The notes beneath the pieces were generated by a model. The model saw only the letters and a list, made by a program, of their open reading frames with translations. It searched no databases and was not told the origin of the DNA. A stretch of 64,000 nucleotides of DNA from an uncultured Halanaerobiales bacterium (lineage in GTDB: Bacteria; Bacillota; Halanaerobiia; B1SED10-174), in NCBI GenBank assembly GCA_964568715.1, contig CAZMQU010000001.1, forward strand, positions 143,287 to 207,286, read 5' to 3'. Below are positions 33,938 through 58,107 of the stretch, one piece after another. Numbering within the stretch: the stretch's first letter is position 1; the number at the start of each line of letters is the position of its first letter. Both the position numbers and the translations under genes were made by a program.

Positions 33938-33970
33938 AAGCGCTAGCAATGCCTTAAGGCATTGCTAGCT
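33938..33970 (-). terminator. Hairpin/terminator overlapping the thrS stop codon
   Basis: GCTAGCAATGCC TTAA GGCATTGCTAGC perfect 12-bp stem; the loop contains the thrS TAA. Confidence 0.55.
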
Positions 33971-35693
33971 TTCTGTTTTTAATTTCATCGGTCAGCATGG
34001 CTACAAATTCTTCAATTTCAAATACACCCATATCACCTTTTGATCGATGTCGTAAAGAAATATTGCAAGCTTGAGTTTCTCTATCGCCCAATACTGCCAT
34101 ATAGGGAAACTTTTGATTTTGGGCTTGGCGAATCTTATAACCGATTTTCTCATCCCTACCGTCCACCGCGGCCCTTATATTTCTCTCATTTAATATCCCT
34201 TGCAATTGCTTAGCATATGAAATATTTTTTTCGCTTATAGGCAGAATGATAACTTGCACAGGGGCAAGCCATAAAGGAAAAGCTCCGGCAAAATGTTCAA
34301 CCAGAATGCCCAAAAATCTTTCCATGGCGCCGAAAAGAGCCCGGTGGAGCAACACTGGACGATGCTCTTGGCCATCGGGACCGACATAGGTTAAATCAAA
34401 GCGTTGCGGTAGTTGGAAATCCAGCTGAATGGTTCCTAATTGCCAGCTGCGTCCCAAACTGTCACTGACGTGAAAATCAATTTTAGGCCCATAAAAAGCC
34501 CCGTCCCCTTCATTTATCATGTAAGCCAAGCCCCGTTTGTCCAAAGCAAGAGCCAAGGCTTGTTCGGCTTTCTCCCAATCCTGCAATGAACCCATATATT
34601 TTTCTGGGCGGGTGCTTAACTCCAAACGATACTCCAGACCGAAGGTATTATATATTTCTTCAGCCATGGCGGTTACACCGAGGACCTCTTCCGTTATCTG
34701 TTCAGGAAGCATATAAATATGGGCATCATCAATATGGAAAGAGCGAACCCGCAAGAGGCCATGAAGAACGCCCGAGAGTTCGTGGCGATGAACCAAGCCC
34801 ATCTCCGCCATACGGAGGGGAAATTCCCTATAGCTGCGTGGTCTCGATTTGTAAATGAGAAGCCCGCCGGGGCAATTCATCGGCCTTATAGCATAGTTGG
34901 TTTCATCGATTGAAGTAAAATACATATTTTCCCGATAGTTTTCCCAATGCCCTGATTGATGCCATAATTCTTCCTTCAGCAAAACCGGGGTCCGAATTTC
35001 TTCATAACCATTTGCATTGTGGAGTTGTCGCCAATATTCGATCAGTTGGTTCCAAACAATGACCCCGCGTGGATGCAAAAAAGGAAATCCCGGCCCCTCA
35101 TCATGGAAACTGAATAAATCAAGCTCCCTGCCCAGTTTTCGATGATCTCTTTTCTTGGCTTCCTCCAAGCGATAAAGGTACTTTTCCAGCTCTTCTTCAC
35201 TGAAAAAAGCCGTACCGTAAATACGTTGCAACATTTTATTCTTTTCATCTCCCCGCCAGTAAGCACCGGCTATACTCAACAACTTAAAAGCCGGTACAGA
35301 ACCCGTTGACTTCAGATGAGGTCCTCGGCAAAGGTCGATAAATTCACCTTGTCGATAAATACTGATATCTTCATCGGCAGGCAACTCGGCAATCAACTCA
35401 AGTTTATATAATTCGCCCATCTCCCTAAAGGTAGCTTCCGCTTCTTCTCTGCCCATTATTACTTTCTCCAAAAGAAGATCTTCAAGAATAATTCTTTTCA
35501 TTTCTTCTTCAATTTTAGCCAAATCATCTGTCGATAAGCGCACGGTCAGGTCAAAATCGTAATAAAAACCATCGTCAATGGACGGACCGATACCCAGTTT
35601 TGCATCGGGATAAATTCTTTTTACAGCTTGGGCAAGAATATGAGATGCTGTATGCCTTAGAGCCTCAAAATCTTTTACTTCCATTCTATACAC
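33954..35693 (-). CDS. thrS: Threonine--tRNA ligase (lacks N-terminal TGS domain)
   Basis: RHTASHILAQAV (editing-domain motif), class II aaRS core, C-terminal anticodon-binding domain; 579 aa. Confidence 0.9.
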   Translation of the reverse strand: MYRMEVKDFEALRHTASHILAQAVKRIYPDAKLGIGPSIDDGFYYDFDLTVRLSTDDLAKIEEEMKRIILEDLLLEKVIMGREEAEATFREMGELYKLELIAELPADEDISIYRQGEFIDLCRGPHLKSTGSVPAFKLLSIAGAYWRGDEKNKMLQRIYGTAFFSEEELEKYLYRLEEAKKRDHRKLGRELDLFSFHDEGPGFPFLHPRGVIVWNQLIEYWRQLHNANGYEEIRTPVLLKEELWHQSGHWENYRENMYFTSIDETNYAIRPMNCPGGLLIYKSRPRSYREFPLRMAEMGLVHRHELSGVLHGLLRVRSFHIDDAHIYMLPEQITEEVLGVTAMAEEIYNTFGLEYRLELSTRPEKYMGSLQDWEKAEQALALALDKRGLAYMINEGDGAFYGPKIDFHVSDSLGRSWQLGTIQLDFQLPQRFDLTYVGPDGQEHRPVLLHRALFGAMERFLGILVEHFAGAFPLWLAPVQVIILPISEKNISYAKQLQGILNERNIRAAVDGRDEKIGYKIRQAQNQKFPYMAVLGDRETQACNISLRHRSKGDMGVFEIEEFVAMLTDEIKNRKLAMP

Positions 35694-35700
35694 CCCTTTT

Positions 35701-35995
35701 AAAAAAATGAACCTTTCGCCTGATAGAGACGAAAGGTTTTCGCGGTTCCACTCTACTAAATCAGTTTAAATAAAGCACTGATTCCCTCAATTTGATAACG
35801 GTCATTGACCGGCCTGTCCTACTCAGTTATTAAATAACCTTCAGCAGGCAGCTCCCAGGTGGTTTTCAAGCCCTGGCACGCAGAAGGATTCCAGCCAAGT
35901 CCTTCTTTCTCTTAGCGCACACTCGGACCCTACTCTTCCTATTCATAGCCATAAAATACAGATATATTTTGTAAACCCATTTTACTTTGAAACAA
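35701..35995 (-). promoter_or_regulatory. T-box riboswitch leader (Thr specifier) with terminator/antiterminator preceding thrS
   Basis: Minus-strand RNA carries AGUAGAGUGGAACCGCG (T-box consensus). It is followed by CCUUUCGUCUCUAUCAGGCGAAAGG + U7, and a candidate specifier sits in GAAAACCACC (ACC = Thr). Confidence 0.8.
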
Positions 35996-43521: not shown

Positions 43522-45138
43522 TTACCAACCCACAACTTGTCCGTCAGTTCGTGGGTCGCTGGCACCGACCAAAACACCTTCATCGGTCCGCCATATTATT
43601 TGGCCCCGCCCGAAACTCGTTATATCTAATTGCTTTTCAATTTGATGACCCCGCCGTTGCAAAGCCCTTGCGACGTGATTGGGGAAATCCGGCTCCACAA
43701 AAATCTTTTTCCCTTCAAGCCACTGCCAGCGGGGTGAGTCCAAAGCTGCCTGCGGATTCATATTTTTATCAACACTATTGATTATAACCTGCAAGTGGCC
43801 TTGCGGTTGCATAAATCCGCCCATAACACCAAAAGGCCCCAGCGCTTCAGCACCTTTGGTTAAAAACCCGGGGATAATGGTATGGTATGTTTTTTTCTGC
43901 GGCTCAAGATAATTGATATGTTCCTCTTCAAGGGAAAAAGTATGACCACGGTTTTGCAGGCTGATGCCGGTACCCGGTACAACCAATCCCGAGCCAAAAC
44001 CCATATAGTTACTTTGTATATAGGAGACCATATTCCCCTCTCCGTCAGCTGTAGCAAGATAAACTGTTCCCCCGGCATCAAAAGAACCCGGCCGGGGTTC
44101 CAAGGCCTTCTCGCCAATCAGGGTTTTTCTTTTTTGGCCGTATTCGGTAGACAGCAAATCTTCCACCGCAGCTTCCATATAACGGGGATCGGTAATATAA
44201 TGCAAGCCGTCGGAGAAAGCCAACTTGAGGGCTTCGATTTGTTTATGGTAGAAATCCACCTTTCCTTCTTGGTCAAGGGAGTAATCTTTTAAAATATTCA
44301 AAGCCATCAATGCAATCATGCCTTGCCCGTTGGGCGGTATCTCCCACACATCATACCCTTTGTAATTTACGCTGACCGGTTTCACCCATTCAGCCCGGAA
44401 AGATTCTAAATCGTAATGGTCCAAAAATCCGCCGTACTTCCGGGCAAAGGCAACAATCTTTTTAGCGAGGCTCCCTTTATAAAAATCATCGCCCTTGCTT
44501 TGAGCAATTAATTGCAGTGTCTGAGCCATTGCCGGAGAATTCCATATTTCACCGACTCGGGGTGCCCGCCCCTTTGGAGCAAAAGTCTCAAACCAAGCGG
44601 AAAATTCTTCGCCCCGCAAATTGGCCTTATAAATATCAAAAGCCCTTTGCCAATTTAGAGCAAGGACCGGCGATACCGGATACCCGGACCGGGCATATTC
44701 AATGGCCGGCTCCAAGCATTCTTCCAAGGTTAACCGGCCAAACCTTTCCAGTGCAGCTACCCACCCCGCCGGTACTCCTGGAACAGTCACCGGCAGCCAA
44801 CCGTATTTAGGCATCGTCTTATGGCCCAAAGCTTTAACTTTGTCAGCACTTATGGCAGCAGGAGCAGGGCCGCTGTTATTCAATCCATAAAGTTTGCCCT
44901 CTTTCCAAATAAGAGCAAAAGAATCACCGCCGATTCCGTTAGCTGTTGGCTCTACCACCGTTAAACAGGCTGCGGTGGCAACAGCAGCATCGATTGCATT
45001 TCCGCCTTTCTTTAAAATCTCAAGGCCCGCCTGGGCAGCAAGGGGTTGCGATGTTGCAACCATGCCCCGCCGGGCATACATGGCCATACGCCGGGAAGTA
45101 TAAGGATTATACAAGGGATCAAATTTCAGCATATACAA
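43522..45138 (-). CDS. ggt: Gamma-glutamyltransferase
   Basis: 538 aa; N-terminus VATSQPLAAQAGLEILKKGGNAIDAAVAT; catalytic TTH-like region GTVYLATADGEGN. Confidence 0.9.
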   Translation of the reverse strand: MYMLKFDPLYNPYTSRRMAMYARRGMVATSQPLAAQAGLEILKKGGNAIDAAVATAACLTVVEPTANGIGGDSFALIWKEGKLYGLNNSGPAPAAISADKVKALGHKTMPKYGWLPVTVPGVPAGWVAALERFGRLTLEECLEPAIEYARSGYPVSPVLALNWQRAFDIYKANLRGEEFSAWFETFAPKGRAPRVGEIWNSPAMAQTLQLIAQSKGDDFYKGSLAKKIVAFARKYGGFLDHYDLESFRAEWVKPVSVNYKGYDVWEIPPNGQGMIALMALNILKDYSLDQEGKVDFYHKQIEALKLAFSDGLHYITDPRYMEAAVEDLLSTEYGQKRKTLIGEKALEPRPGSFDAGGTVYLATADGEGNMVSYIQSNYMGFGSGLVVPGTGISLQNRGHTFSLEEEHINYLEPQKKTYHTIIPGFLTKGAEALGPFGVMGGFMQPQGHLQVIINSVDKNMNPQAALDSPRWQWLEGKKIFVEPDFPNHVARALQRRGHQIEKQLDITSFGRGQIIWRTDEGVLVGASDPRTDGQVVGW

Positions 45139-45246
45139 TTCTCCTTTTAAAACAATATTAACAGATTCATTACTCTTAATTCCACAAATAGAACATTATA
45201 TCCTACATAAAAGATAAAATCTTTAAGCATGGTCGGGCTGACGCCC

Positions 45247-45402
45247 TTACTTTCCTAATTTCATTAGCCCTGTAGCGATATATGCCTGAAAAGGTATGTT
45301 GAAATATCTTGCCAAGACATCTCCCGGAAATAAAGATGCAATATGGCCAATATGCAATGAACTATTCGCATAAGGCCACGCACCATCAATAAATATATTC
45401 AT
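45247..45402 (-). pseudogene. metG: Truncated methionyl-tRNA synthetase N-terminal fragment (51-codon remnant)
   Basis: [34 protein letters not shown] has the MetRS-specific PYANG-LH-GH and DVLARY motifs. Similarity is lost after ~35 aa and a stop follows at codon 52. A strong RBS AAAGGAGG sits upstream. Confidence 0.6.
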
Positions 45403-45570
45403 GGTTTTGCCTCCTTTATAATAAAAAATCCCTCTCCTAAAAATTTTAGGAACGGGATTGCTTTCCGTGTTACCATCCTATTTCACCACATCTTATGATG
45501 TAAAATTCATCAATTACTTTGCCCGGGGCAATTATACTCTATCACTGTAATGGGTGAAATCATTGCAGCC
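45403..45570 (-). promoter_or_regulatory. Degenerate T-box-like leader remnant upstream of the metG fragment
   Basis: Minus-strand RNA carries GGUGAAAUAGGAUGGUAACACGG (14/19 to the T-box consensus AAUUAGGGUGGUACCGCGG). It is followed by hairpin AAUCCCGUUCCUAAAA/UUUUAGGAGAGGGAUU + U-run; an AUGA candidate specifier lies upstream. Confidence 0.35.
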
Positions 45571-45654
45571 TTAAGCCAATCACTTGAAATTATAATAGAT
45601 TTCAATGCACTGCTCCGGGGCCGTTTTCACTTTAAATCTCTTTGTTCTTTTCCA

Positions 45655-46134
45655 TTATAGGGAACTTTCCGGGGCAGCCTTGCCGGTCATGTGATCGATG
45701 GAAATCTCAATTAAACAGACCTTTGCCCATCCTTTCCTAATTACTTCCTCTGCTTCAACGGAATAATCGGGAAAATATTTTTCAACCAGTAGATCGAGGG
45801 CCTTTCTTTTCTGCAAGTCATCGGTAATAAAAACAGCCCGGCCAAAAAGGCAAACGCTGCGAAAATGGGTAGTAAATTCTTTTTGGACAATGTCATCCCT
45901 TTCTATTACGCAAAAGGTTACCTTGTCATTATTTTTTATACTCTCGATCTTATGTCCTTTTTGAGCACTATGCAAGTAAATTTTACCTTTTTCATAAGCA
46001 TAACTCATAGGAACGGTGTAGGGATAACCGTTTTTATCGATGGTACCTAAAACCCCCGAAGTACACTTATTTAATATCTTTATCGATTCTTCCTTTGCCA
46101 AAAGTTTTTCTTTCCTGCGCATCTTTCTAAACAT
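45655..46134 (-). CDS. Pyridoxamine 5'-phosphate oxidase-like FMN-binding split-barrel protein
   Basis: 159 aa PNPOx-like family member (GYPYTVPMSYAY...). Confidence 0.7.
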   Translation of the reverse strand: MFRKMRRKEKLLAKEESIKILNKCTSGVLGTIDKNGYPYTVPMSYAYEKGKIYLHSAQKGHKIESIKNNDKVTFCVIERDDIVQKEFTTHFRSVCLFGRAVFITDDLQKRKALDLLVEKYFPDYSVEAEEVIRKGWAKVCLIEISIDHMTGKAAPESSL

Positions 46135-46179
46135 ACTCCCACCTCATCGTTGTTCAGACTAAATATTTTTAAAATAGGC

Positions 46180-46695
46180 CTAATGATCCTTTGCTGCAGA
46201 TTTTGCCAAGGCATTATTTATTAACATTTTAAAATGATTGAAGTTTCGATAGCCGATTGATTTCATAATTATCTCCCCGTCTTTGTCAACCAGAAAAACC
46301 GTAGGAATACCTTTGATTCCCCAAGCAGACAAGGACTTCATGTTTGTATCCATGAACACGGGAAAAGAAATGCTATATTTTTCTATAAAGTTCCGGACGG
46401 CGTTGAGCGAGTCACCTGCTGATATAGCAACAATTTCAATATCATGGTTTCGGAAAAATTCCAGGTTTTTCTGGTAATCGTTCATCGCTAAAATACAGGG
46501 CTGACACCAGGTTGCCCATACATCAACTAAAATATAGTTGCCTTCTTCTTTAAAGAAAGAGCCAAAACTAATTTTCTCCCCTTCCATGGAGATTAAATCG
46601 ATATCGGTAATTATAGCGCCTTCTTCCAAAGCCAAAACCAAACCTGACCCAAACACTGTAAACAATATTACCAATAACAATATTTTTTTAGTCAT
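46180..46695 (-). CDS. TlpA/ResA-like extracytoplasmic thiol-disulfide oxidoreductase (thioredoxin fold)
   Basis: Signal anchor MTKKILLLVILFTVFGSGLVLA; WATWCQPC active site. Confidence 0.85.
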   Translation of the reverse strand: MTKKILLLVILFTVFGSGLVLALEEGAIITDIDLISMEGEKISFGSFFKEEGNYILVDVWATWCQPCILAMNDYQKNLEFFRNHDIEIVAISAGDSLNAVRNFIEKYSISFPVFMDTNMKSLSAWGIKGIPTVFLVDKDGEIIMKSIGYRNFNHFKMLINNALAKSAAKDH

Positions 46696-46730
46696 GTTGC
46701 CTCCTAAATCAATTTTTTTTTATTTTCCGG

Positions 46731-47549
46731 TTATTGGGGTAAAACTTCATGTAACTTTTTTCGCCTTGGAGAAAATTCCATTACATTTTTGCCCACTTGG
46801 ATATTGACATGGGGGCAAGCTGTACATTCAAAACAGCGAATACATTCGGGACTATTTGGTTCTTCATATACTTTTAAATCCATGGGACAAATATCTTGGC
46901 ACCTTCCGCATTTTGTACAACCATCACCAACATTTAATTTCAAAAAACTGTATCTGTTGAATAAGGAATATATTGCACCCAATGGGCAAACAAAACGGCA
47001 AAAAAACCTTTTTGAAAATATAAAAGAAAATAAAAATACGACCGTCAAAGCCAATTTTCCGTAAAAGAAGGGCCCGATGACTTGCCGGATGCTTTTATCG
47101 GTTACCGCCAATGGTACCCCGCCCTCCAAGGTACCGACAAAACACAGTTTGGAAAACCATGGTTCCCCGCTAATATATGGTATAAACAAGACCAATACCA
47201 ACAATACGATATATTTAAAAAATCTCAACTGTGTGCAATTAATTTTGATTTTGGGCGTTGGTATCTTGTATAGCATTTCTTGCAGCCAGCCTATTGGACA
47301 AGCCCAACCGCATATCAACCTACCCACGGTGGACCCGATAAGGGTAAAAAATCCGATCAACAGGAAGGGTATTTTTTTAATAACCATAAAATGCTGCAGA
47401 CTGCCAATTGGGCAAGCTCCCAAGGCCCAAGGGCAGGCATAACAGTTCAAGGCCGGAACTGGGCAGTATTTAAAAGTAAACCCAAATGGATTATATAAAA
47501 CGAAAGACAGCATTTGAACGTATTTGCGAATACTTCTTTTTTTCAACAA
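46731..47549 (-). CDS. NapH/MauN-like membrane polyferredoxin (4Fe-4S binding)
   Basis: CYACPWALGACPIG and CGWACPIGWLQ N-terminal CxxCP motifs, TM helices, C-terminal CTKCGRCQDICP and CIRCFECTACP ferredoxin motifs. Confidence 0.8.
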   Translation of the reverse strand: MLKKRSIRKYVQMLSFVLYNPFGFTFKYCPVPALNCYACPWALGACPIGSLQHFMVIKKIPFLLIGFFTLIGSTVGRLICGWACPIGWLQEMLYKIPTPKIKINCTQLRFFKYIVLLVLVLFIPYISGEPWFSKLCFVGTLEGGVPLAVTDKSIRQVIGPFFYGKLALTVVFLFSFIFSKRFFCRFVCPLGAIYSLFNRYSFLKLNVGDGCTKCGRCQDICPMDLKVYEEPNSPECIRCFECTACPHVNIQVGKNVMEFSPRRKKLHEVLPQ

Positions 47550-47736
47550 AGATTCATCCCACCCCTATACAAGATAAGCAAGTTATTATAGCATTGAAAA
47601 AAATATCCATGTATTCCCGGCGAAGAATACCGCATAATAAGAAAAGCAAACCAAATAACCATAAATATTTATAGCTTTTGATGTATATCACCCCTTTATC
47701 GGTCTTTCAACCATATGTCCTAATTTTAGATGTAAC

Positions 47737-48714
47737 TCAATCTTTATCTTCGCTAAAGAGTTGCAAGTATTGGCCATAACCTTCCTCTGCCAGTTTTTCT
47801 TTGGGTATAAATTTCAAAGCAGCTGAATTTATACAATACCTAAGCCCGCCCCGCTCACGCGGTCCATCTTTGAATACATGTCCCAGATGTGAATCAGACA
47901 ATTTGCTGCGTACTTCCGTCCGAATCCTGCCACGGCTGGTATCGAGCTTTTCGACCAATAAATCTTTCTGGAAAGGTTTTGTAAAGCTAGGCCAGCCTGA
48001 TCCGGAATCATACTTATCGGAGGATATAAAAAGAGGCTCACCGGAAATGATATCGACATAAATACCCTCCCTTTTTTCATTCCAATATTCATTATCAAAA
48101 GGCGGCTCGGTACCGTCCTCACGGGTAACATGGTATTGCAAATCAGTAAGACTTTGCCTTAATGCCTCGTCATCAACATCAAAGGACCAATGTTTTTCAA
48201 TAAATTCATCCCGACCGGAACTTTGACGATATTTATTATAGTGCTTGGGATTCTTCTTATAAAAACTTTGATGATATTCTTCGGCCGGCCAAAATTCCTG
48301 GGCAGGCAAGATAGCTGTTACAATCGGTTTTTGAAAACGGCCACTTGCCGCCAAAGCATCTTTGGAAGCTTCGGCTTTATCTTTTTGAGCAGGGCTATGA
48401 TAAAAAATAGCAGTTCGATAAGAGTCACCTTTATCGCAAAACTGGCCGCCAGGATCGGTGGGATCAATCTGGCGCCAAAATATATCCAGCAATTTTTGGT
48501 ATGAAATGATATTGGGATTGAAGGTTATCTGGATGGCTTCCAGGTGGCCGGTATTACCACTACAGACCTGTTCATAACTGGGCTTGGTCACCCAGCCGCC
48601 GGTATATCCTGATACAACCTTATTAACGCCGGGATACTCATCGAAGGGCATAACCATACACCAAAAACAACCTCCGGCAAAAGTTGCCAATTCGTGATTA
48701 GCCAATGGAATCAC
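47737..48714 (-). CDS. msrAB: Bifunctional peptide methionine sulfoxide reductase MsrA/MsrB
   Basis: GCFWC (MsrA active site) N-terminal; C-terminal MsrB with RYCINSAAL and HLGHVF. Confidence 0.9.
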
Positions 48715-56162: not shown

Positions 56163-57890
56163 TCACTTGGTGCGGCCTTTAATTCGCGCCCAGGTATCAC
56201 GCAATGAAACGATACGGTTAAACACGGGTTTTCCTGGTTGGCTTAAAACCGGATCGACAAAAAAATAGCCGTGGCGCAAAAATTGATACCGGTCACCTTT
56301 TCGGGCTTCTGCCAACCCGGGCTCAAGTAGGCAATCTTTCAAAATTTCCAGAGAGTTGGGATTTATATGCTTTAAAAATTCGTCACCCGTTTCGTTGTCT
56401 TCATCGGTGGTCCCTTCCGGATTTTCAATCAAAAACAATGTATCAAAGAGCTGGACATCCCCTTTGATGGCATGAGCAGCAGATACCCAGTGTAATGTAC
56501 CCTTAACCCTCCTGCCGTCCGTTGACCAACCGCCCCTAGTGGCCGGATCATGAGTACAATGAACCTCGAGAACCTCTCCGGTATCTTCATCTTGGATTAC
56601 TTTTTGGCAAGTAATATAATAGGCATGGTTCAAGCGAACTTCTTTGCCGGGAGACAGGCGGAAAAACTTCTTGGGCGGGTTCAACATAAAATCTGTTTTT
56701 TCAATATAAATCTCCCTTGCAAAAGGAATTTTCCGGGAACCCATACCAGGATCTTCCGGATTGTTAACGGCTTCTAACTCTTCTACCTTCCCCTCCGGAT
56801 AATCCGTGATTACAACTTTCAACGGTCGCATAACTACCATTGCCCGGGGTGCCTTTTTGTTCAACTCCTCTCGAATGCAATGTTCCAATAAGGCAAAATC
56901 GACGGTGCTGTCTGCCCGTGCTACCCCGATTCTCTCCGTAAAATCCCGCAAGGCGGCAGGCGTATAGCCCCGGCGACGAATGCCGGAAATGGTGGGCATT
57001 CGTGGATCATCCCAACCAGTGACAAAATTTCCTTCCACTAATTTGCGCAATTTTCGTTTACTTAAAATTGTATGGGTTATATTGAGCCGAGCAAACTCGT
57101 ATTGGCGAGAACGGGTTTTTATATAGTCGGGCATCAACTTCAATGCCTGCTCGACAATCCAGTTATACAAGGGACGGTGGTCGGTCCATTCTATGGAACA
57201 TAAAGAATGGGTAATACCCTCCAAAGCATCTGAAAAAGGGTGAGCAAAATCATACATAGGATATATGCACCAATCATCACCGGTTCGGTGGTGGCTGGCA
57301 TGGAGAATTCGATATATTACCGGGTCGCGCATATTTAAATTACCCGAGGCCATATCAATCTTGGCCCGCAACACCCGGGCTCCTTCCGGAAATTCCCCTT
57401 CTTTCATCCTCTTAAATAAATCCAGATTCTCTTCAACGGTTCTGTTTCTATAAGGACTGTTTGTCCCGGGTGCAGTCAGTGTACCGCGATATTCCCTTAT
57501 TTCTTCCGGCGACAGATCGCAAACAAAGGCCTTCTGTGCTTTAATCAAACGGCAGGCAAATTCATATTTAATTTCAAAGTAATCCGAGGCAAAATAAAGC
57601 CGATCCTCCCAATCCACACCAAGCCATTTAACATCTTCGATGATTGAATTAACGAACTCCTGCTCTTCCTTGATTGGGTTTGTATCATCGAAACGCAAAT
57701 TTATTTTGCCGTTAAATTCAGAGGCAATGCTATCGTTGAGATATATAGCCTTGGCATGGCCGATATGTAAATACCCGTTGGGCTCGGGTGGAAAACGGGT
57801 ATGGACACGGCCACCATAAGTATCGTTTTCCAAATCTTCAATTACGATATCACGAATAAAATTGCTGCCCGGTGAATAATCATTGCTCAT
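56163..57890 (-). CDS. glnS: Glutamine--tRNA ligase (GlnRS); start taken at MSNDYS..., track ORF extends to 57914
   Basis: [17 protein letters not shown] class I HIGH region, catalytic domain and C-terminal anticodon-binding beta-barrels; about 575 aa typical of GlnRS rather than GluRS. Confidence 0.8.
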
Positions 57891-58107
57891 TATTATTTTC
57901 CTCCTTGTTTTCATTTGTAAACCATTTCTCCACGCTTTTTAAATTTTTATTTAAAGCAGCTGGCTTGGTTTTGGTAAATTTTTTGTTTATTATAGCTTTT
58001 TATACTTTACTATTAATTATTATAACAAACTTTGCTGAACAAGGATAAAATACTTTTGCTCTTCTATGGTGAATAATAAATATTAACAGTCTTCCGGCGG
58101 AAACACT

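Follow-up and report, generated by a model that had tools for sequence, protein, structure and literature searches.

Probable remains of an accessory T-box-regulated metG, reduced by deletions, upstream of ggt in an uncultured Halanaerobiales bacterium

On the minus strand of the window, by which we mean the whole 64-kb stretch of DNA analysed here, a 51-codon open reading frame (ORF) that begins like a methionyl-tRNA synthetase (MetRS) lies between a PNPOx-family gene and ggt, behind a sequence resembling a T-box leader. This arrangement raises the question of whether the locus is a working gene or regulator, or what remains of a gene that has been lost. Our analysis indicates that the region is very probably a non-functional relic of an accessory, T-box-regulated metG that was reduced by deletions. 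On the 5' side, the PNPOx-family gene is preceded by an AhpC/thioredoxin-like gene, a Fer4_5 protein gene and msrAB; the non-coding stretch between it and the ORF is 252 nt long, and a further 108 nt separate the ORF from ggt, which starts at 45138 (minus) and is followed by pcp, mpg, an unknown gene and kamDE (Table 1). The upstream genes make up a redox cluster (45655..48714, minus) of an msrAB fusion, a Fer4_5 membrane protein, an AhpC/TlpA-like thioredoxin-fold protein and a PNPOx/NimA-like flavoprotein. That a methionine-repair operon adjoins a formerly Met-regulated metG may or may not be a coincidence.

Table 1. Coordinates of the features at the metG relic and its borders (window positions).
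Feature	Position	Strand	Basis or remark
PNPOx-family gene	46134..45655	minus	
5' junction	45655..45672	minus	blastn block with L110 begins at 45672; C-termini of PNPOx homologues; same breakpoint in L166
T-box leader remnant	45494..45654	minus	Infernal alignments; 91% identity to L110; missing from L166
T-box 3' domain, structurally intact	45423..45493	minus	Stem III hairpin, 14-mer, antiterminator, terminator hairpin, U run
Ribosome-binding site GGAGG	45414..45410	minus	ATG of the 51-codon ORF 7 nt further on
metG ribosome-binding site and MetRS codons 1-34 (PYAN, HIGH)	45301..45414	minus	PF09334, 29.8 bits; tblastn with L110 MetRS, 88% identity over residues 1-34
51-codon ORF with stop	45402..45247	minus	
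Second metG piece AACATACCTTTTCAGGCATATATC (NIPFQAYI)	45277..45300	minus	local alignment to L110 metG at KDNIPFHTII, around residue 290
Rest of ORF tail with stop (ATGLMKLGK*)	45247..45276	minus	by-eye frame-preserving comparison with MetRS
Spacer to the ggt start codon	45139..45246	minus	small hairpin GGGCGUCAGCCC; window-L166 alignment

The 5' part of the ORF bears a clear MetRS signature. Residues 4-34 match positions 2-32 of the 391 positions of Pfam PF09334 (tRNA-synt_1g, the MetRS catalytic domain) above its cut-off of 20.1 bits, and the string LHIGH identifies the N-terminal Rossmann-fold segment with the HIGH motif. The full catalytic domain with KMSKS and the anticodon-binding domain are absent, the ORF stopping at codon 51. 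The first-pass annotation had read this ORF as a MetRS N-terminal fragment with a ribosome-binding site, and both the Pfam match and the position of GGAGG bear it out. The fossil exceeds the span first reported and runs from about 45672 down to at least 45277; elsewhere in the 64-kb window, tblastn with the MetRS of a related contig, L110, found no further MetRS similarity.

The source of the leader becomes visible through related loci. Metagenome contigs, searched with the 51-aa peptide, yielded 80 metG loci, most of them full-length (about 525-565 codons), several of which carry Met T-boxes with the specifier AUG. One of these contigs, L110 (MTBK01185614.1, 1534 nt, project MTBK01), has a leader whose specifier loop reads GAAAAUGG (AUG), followed by a metG of the ~540-aa type. 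By blastn, positions 45672..45300 of the window align with positions 39..411 of L110 at 91% identity over 373 nt, without gaps and with sharp ends on both sides. The L110 leader scores 78.1 bits against the T-box model RF00230 although the contig end cuts its 5' side, inside Stem I; for comparison, the scores at four other loci are 92.1 (L088), 91.2 (L087), 82.4 (L127) and 102.5 (L167). The leader in the window reaches 34.4 bits, below the gathering score of 93 (E 6.8e-6 in a 701-nt search), and a whole-window scan at the gathering threshold did not report it. To fill the 5' half of Stem I, the RF00230 alignment has to draw on conserved PNPOx coding sequence, and many of the resulting pairs are non-standard. 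By the Rfam model alone the leader is thus sub-threshold; at the level of sequence, its T-box origin is proven by the ungapped identity to L110. The earlier description of the locus as a fossil metG with a degenerate T-box leader therefore holds: there is an Infernal match, and there is a relationship to metG, the latter resting on the related contig L110.

As a positive control for these searches we used a genuine T-box at 35955..35722 (minus; 119.4 bits, specifier ACC, bulge UGGA) of the same window. It precedes the ThrRS gene thrS (ORF 33954..35693, minus; PF00587, PF03129, PF07973). The leader upstream of ggt was considered as a copy of this thrS T-box and rejected, as the alignment of the two shares the generic T-box core only. 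A 583-aa class I aminoacyl-tRNA synthetase of the GluRS/GlnRS family (PF00749, PF03950, PF20974) at 56163..57914 (minus) has no T-box nearby at the gathering threshold.

What is left of the leader falls into two parts of different quality. The 5' remnant runs from the 3' strand of Stem I, specifier loop (GAAAACGG) included, through the Stem II region, an F-box-like CCCAUUA and the conserved linker ACAGUGAUAGAGUAU to the first Stem III hairpin. What the window lacks is the 5' strand of Stem I: homology begins only at L110 position 39, and nothing in the window corresponds to the 38 nt before it, which hold this strand and the GA motif. A complete Stem I, with K-turn/GA motif, distal platform and a closed specifier loop, is absent. 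The specifier is ACG (45624..45622), where L110, L087, L088 and L127 have AUG in the alignment, and fails to match the methionine of metG. Because the Stem I 5' strand is missing and the specifier has changed from AUG to ACG, this RNA would be unable to read a tRNA. The 3' domain, in turn, retains the T-box sequence, an antiterminator with a UGGN bulge and an alternative terminator with a U tract. The T-box 14-mer AGGAUGGUAACACG (45479..45466), with the bulge UGGU, lies inside the string GGUGAAAUAGGAUGGUAACACGG (45487..45465) and is the same in L110. The terminator-like hairpin pointed out in the first-pass annotation lies at 45459..45427 and has a predicted stability of -16.9 kcal/mol (z -4.6), which none of 200 shuffled sequences equalled; a run of six U begins in its 3' arm and ends at 45423. 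Folded as a whole to its minimum free energy, the leader does not stand out from shuffled sequences (z -0.47). A 10-of-12 sigma-70-like element, TTCACC-16-TATAAT (45558..45531, minus), was rejected as a promoter: it sits in the linker ACAGYGAUAGAGUAU, which is kept in the metG T-boxes of the distant contigs L088, L127 and L110, and is probably an RNA element instead.

An orthologous locus, L166 (MTBK01233234.1), was reached through the PNPOx homologue P0003 (94% identical) and has the same gene order as the window, namely Fer4_5, AhpC-like, PNPOx, remnant and ggt, with flanking coding sequence that is 90-93% identical. The two loci have in common a PNPOx breakpoint after GKAA, a nearly coincident internal junction and the ORF tail. 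At the 5' junction, PNPOx homologues end in ...HMTGKAAIEIxxx and the protein in the window reads GKAA|PESSL*, so that about seven native C-terminal codons have been lost; beyond the same breakpoint, the L166 protein ends in RELT*. The last six codons of the gene in the window, CCG GAA AGT TCC CTA TAA (PESSL*), correspond to former distal Stem I sequence of the T-box, and the sequence that stands where the 5' strand of Stem I would be is PNPOx coding sequence, conserved at the protein level in homologues (...CLIEIxIEHMTGKAA). From the start of the L110 homology at 45672 and the altered PNPOx C-terminus, it follows that the end of the PNPOx gene, the intergenic T-box promoter and half of Stem I were deleted.

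The 3' part of the ORF points to a second deletion. The tail matches a MetRS motif, KDNIPFHTIILPALL, that lies about 250 codons downstream of codon 34, which suggests that the gene was gutted by internal deletions. The window would then hold codons 1-34 and about 291-298 or further, two pieces that are colinear and non-adjacent, and the junction 45301|45300 would mark an internal deletion of about 750 nt. At this junction L166 retains GGCAAAGAC (GKD); its sequence there, TTTCCCGGCAAA|GACAAC, is what a deletion running from AGGGCAAA (codons 36-38) to ATGGTAAA (codons ~287-288) of metG would leave. The deletion so reconstructed is out of frame, and the window lacks 11 further nt, by which the frame is restored. 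Local alignments place the tails of the window and of L166 at one and the same site in L110; the L166 tail, aligned over at least 34 nt, was equalled in score by 6 of 500 shuffles, and the alignment of the window tail to metG is not significant alone, a point that counts against the fossil reading. The remaining ORF tail (45247..45276) is a decayed stretch, possibly colinear with MetRS ...PALLYGIGIMK, judging from the by-eye comparison.

These junctions also bear on how the gene was broken. The first-pass annotation attributed the truncation to insertion of the ggt-pcp-mpg-kam block; either such an insertion into an intact metG or the arrival of a partial 5' copy of metG from elsewhere would account for a fragment at this place. 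The ~540-aa type of MetRS does occur in variable, mobile-looking contexts, and an intact PNPOx-T-box-metG-ggt arrangement was found in no relative. Nevertheless, two colinear, non-adjacent metG pieces together with a leader are best explained by several deletions in place, no 3' part of metG is found beyond the ggt-kam block, and the 5' break also took the native end of the PNPOx gene. We therefore regard an insertion as unlikely and set this part of the first-pass annotation aside in favour of deletion in place.

L166 further shows how far the decay can go. It lacks the sequence corresponding to 45666..45494 of the window (173 nt of the leader), and TGCCCCGG stands at both edges of this gap in the window. 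Its 14-mer has been destroyed (AGUGUGUUAAUGCG), and RF00230 finds no T-box in it at E<=1. The terminator hairpin, by comparison, is kept in the window, L110 and L166; its stems are intact in L166 (-12.6 kcal/mol). The remnant is 74-80% identical between the window and L166 (20-26% divergence), and at four-fold degenerate sites of four flanking genes 47 of 234 positions differ (20%), so the remnant evolves at about the neutral rate.

The same comparison bears on a possible product of the 51-aa ORF, be it a small protein with a function of its own or a leader peptide with a regulatory role. In favour of one, the frame is open from an ATG behind a strong ribosome-binding site, the HIGH motif is intact, and three assemblies call the ORF as a gene. 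However, the three contigs represent one strain (99.6-100% identity), and the L166 ortholog is frameshifted into unrelated sequence with HIGH gone. A word-indexed search of 5.8 billion proteins returned only the peptide itself, and among 1.8 billion representatives it has no family, the matches being heterogeneous truncated MetRS N-termini with unrelated tails. Two changes specific to the window, G6D and L25F, noted by eye, are non-synonymous at conserved MetRS positions, and the ORF contains two Met codons only. By these comparisons the ORF is not a conserved small gene, and we consider a function for its product extremely unlikely.

A regulatory role for the leader was also weighed. The first-pass annotation had raised the possibility of co-option as a Met-responsive leader or upstream ORF for ggt, and a truncated T-box might still act as a regulated attenuator before ggt-pcp, through contact with the acceptor end of a tRNA alone or after re-specification to Thr (ACG). 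The UGGU-bulge antiterminator, the terminator and the U tract are intact, the copy in the window is little changed from L110, and no consensus promoter was called directly before ggt. Against this, the 5' strand of Stem I (K-turn, closure of the specifier loop) has been replaced by conserved coding sequence, so that Stem I cannot form, the specifier is not AUG, and, for a leader peptide, two Met codons are few. A UGGU bulge suits a tRNA whose discriminator is A73, and the thrS T-box of this window has UGGA instead; a switch to Thr is therefore not coherent, and with Stem I missing as well, we rejected it. In L166 the T-box core and 173 nt of the leader are gone, yet ggt and the 90 nt before it remain. 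A T-box motif stands upstream of ggt in none of the GGT homologues of 80 other genomes; in a scan of representative genomes the best GGT matches were 66% identical (Bacilli, Tissierellia), none of them syntenic. Co-option for Met control thus finds no footing here, and we judge a surviving attenuator highly unlikely.

Instead, transcription of ggt probably starts in the conserved stretch that precedes the gene. The ~108 nt before its start codon are 89% identical between the window and L166, and the ~90 nt directly before it (45139..45230, minus), which include TAGGATATAAT, are conserved to the same degree (89%). No consensus sigma-70 promoter or -35 element was called in the spacer, which is likely to hold the ggt promoter or 5'-UTR, its last ~90 nt being a candidate promoter or operator.

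One aspect of the data is less simply explained. Despite the fossil reading, the T-box core, antiterminator, terminator, ribosome-binding site and HIGH motif are intact in the window, which counts against it, as does the fact that the block in the window is less changed than the L166 copy. Over 206 columns common to the window, L110 and L166, private changes number 10, 6 and 34, respectively (window versus L166, p=4e-4), whereas the flanking PNPOx and GGT proteins of the window and L166, measured against outgroups, show no rate difference (10 against 7). Simple common neutral decay does not predict 10 against 34 changes, and the block in the window is nearer to L110 than to L166. The simplest reading of this closeness, to which we give about an even chance, is that metG died before the window and L166 lineages split and that the leader and 5' block in the window were later overwritten from an L110-like lineage in which the gene was live or recently live. 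The private changes place L110 on the branch of the window, with flanks free of rate asymmetry; the differences between the window and L110 in Stem III sit in loops, the stems being kept, as expected if the divergence arose under function; and 5 of the 24 positions of the tail piece differ from L110, a higher share than the 9% of the block. The locus also appears to recombine among strains: between the window and L001, otherwise 99.6% identical, 24 of 31 differences fall within 47283..47478 in the Fer4_5 gene, mostly at third codon positions, a tract that looks like homologous recombination from a diverged relative. On the other side, the tail comparison lacks significance over its 24 nt, no more than 373 nt would be available for the conversion tract, and L110 is a contig of 1.5 kb. 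Such overwriting would refine the fossil reading and does not contradict it.

A different account is that selection, or recurrent recombination with a live copy, preserved the T-box 3' domain and ORF start in the window lineage as a transcriptional insulator or conditional terminator between the msr/redox operon and ggt-pcp, a T-box without Stem I that would retain some response to the tRNA acceptor end. We hold this to be highly improbable. Selective retention in the window is less likely than recombination and is disfavoured by G6D and L25F, the non-synonymous changes at conserved MetRS positions.

Taken as a relic, the locus can be given a plausible history. A metG of the ~540-aa type would once have sat between the PNPOx-family gene and ggt, and at least three deletions would have shrunk it. 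The first, at the 5' side, would have cost the PNPOx gene its last ~7 codons and the T-box its promoter and the 5' strand of Stem I, so that the shortened gene now runs into the middle of that stem. The second, internal and out of frame, would have taken about 750 nt at a GGNAAA microhomology and joined codon ~38 to codon ~288; the further loss of 11 nt in the window would have put the two metG pieces back in frame. A third, at the 3' side, would have removed the rest of the gene. The 51-codon ORF would accordingly be an accidental frame produced by the deletions and translated, if at all, only from read-through transcripts. Since the terminator hairpin is predicted to form by default, it would end transcription of the upstream msrAB-Fer4-AhpC-PNPOx genes; from its structure and its retention in L166, it probably does end the transcripts of that operon.

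The organism itself must, we infer, carry another metG elsewhere. The closest full-length MetRS in the protein collection is 69% identical to that of L110, and with a best match of this order neither the genome of the window nor that of L110 has an intact called copy in the collection. The L110 gene has two 1-nt deletions in homopolymer runs (about 470-480 and 625-635) and may be an early-stage pseudogene or contain sequencing errors; in L166, a contig of the same project, 1.6 kb of coding sequence are free of frame disruptions. When 57 proteins of the window were compared with the 80 metagenome metG loci, none was syntenic. At L167 (5688..7629), a 102.5-bit T-box and metG lie between acetyltransferase genes and a PF04439 adenylyltransferase gene, and at L168 (4446..7629) metG adjoins an IS110 transposase, with no T-box at E<=1e-4. 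These unrelated, mobile-looking contexts fit a dispensable accessory gene.

Set beside the systems it descends from, the locus has kept some hallmarks and lost others. Like Met T-box leaders (RF00230) upstream of metG/metS in Bacillota, it has the 14-mer, the UGGN-bulge antiterminator, the overlapping terminator and U tract, the F-box-like CCAUUA, the layout of Stems II and III and the 3' strand of the specifier loop; unlike them, it is without the Stem I 5' strand, has ACG in place of AUG, and has neither a promoter nor a functional gene downstream. The parent MetRS type of ~540 aa combines PF09334 and PF19303 with a zinc knuckle and has no C-terminal tRNA-binding domain. The window shares with it codons 1-34 (88% identical to L110) and the KDNIPFH piece, but keeps only about 45 of about 540 codons, with no KMSKS, zinc knuckle or anticodon-binding domain. 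In some named Clostridium genomes this type is labelled 'methionine--tRNA ligase 1', which suggests a second metG copy. Accessory MetRS2 genes were reportedly described in Gram-positive bacteria by Gentry et al. and by Brown et al. in 2003, and the ~540-aa type is one that we take to resemble them.

The mode of decay is that of bacterial pseudogenes that erode by microhomology-mediated deletion: the junctions are sharp and lie at short repeats (GGNAAA, and TGCCCCGG for the extra deletion in L166), substitution proceeds at the neutral rate, and related lineages stand at differing stages. Two features are unusual: the decay took a riboswitch-type leader along with its gene, and the reading frame of the upstream gene now terminates within what used to be that leader. 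In the literature we found no description of T-box or aminoacyl-tRNA synthetase fossils of this kind; one survey from 2008 mentions a 'degenerated' box in passing.

In summary, the locus is a case of ordinary though well-documented gene decay. For annotation, it means that the 51-aa 'tRNA-synt_1g' gene in public assemblies is a pseudogene fragment and that the T-box-like sequence is not to be listed among regulators of ggt. It offers a clean, datable case of the decay of a riboswitch-type leader after gene loss, with stages represented by the near-intact L110, the window and the more degraded L166. The decay also had side effects on its neighbours: the upstream operon probably now ends at the surviving terminator, and its last gene has gained a new C-terminus from the leader. 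Finally, that the window block stands so near to a live copy is a hint that pseudogene remnants can be refreshed in part by recombination.
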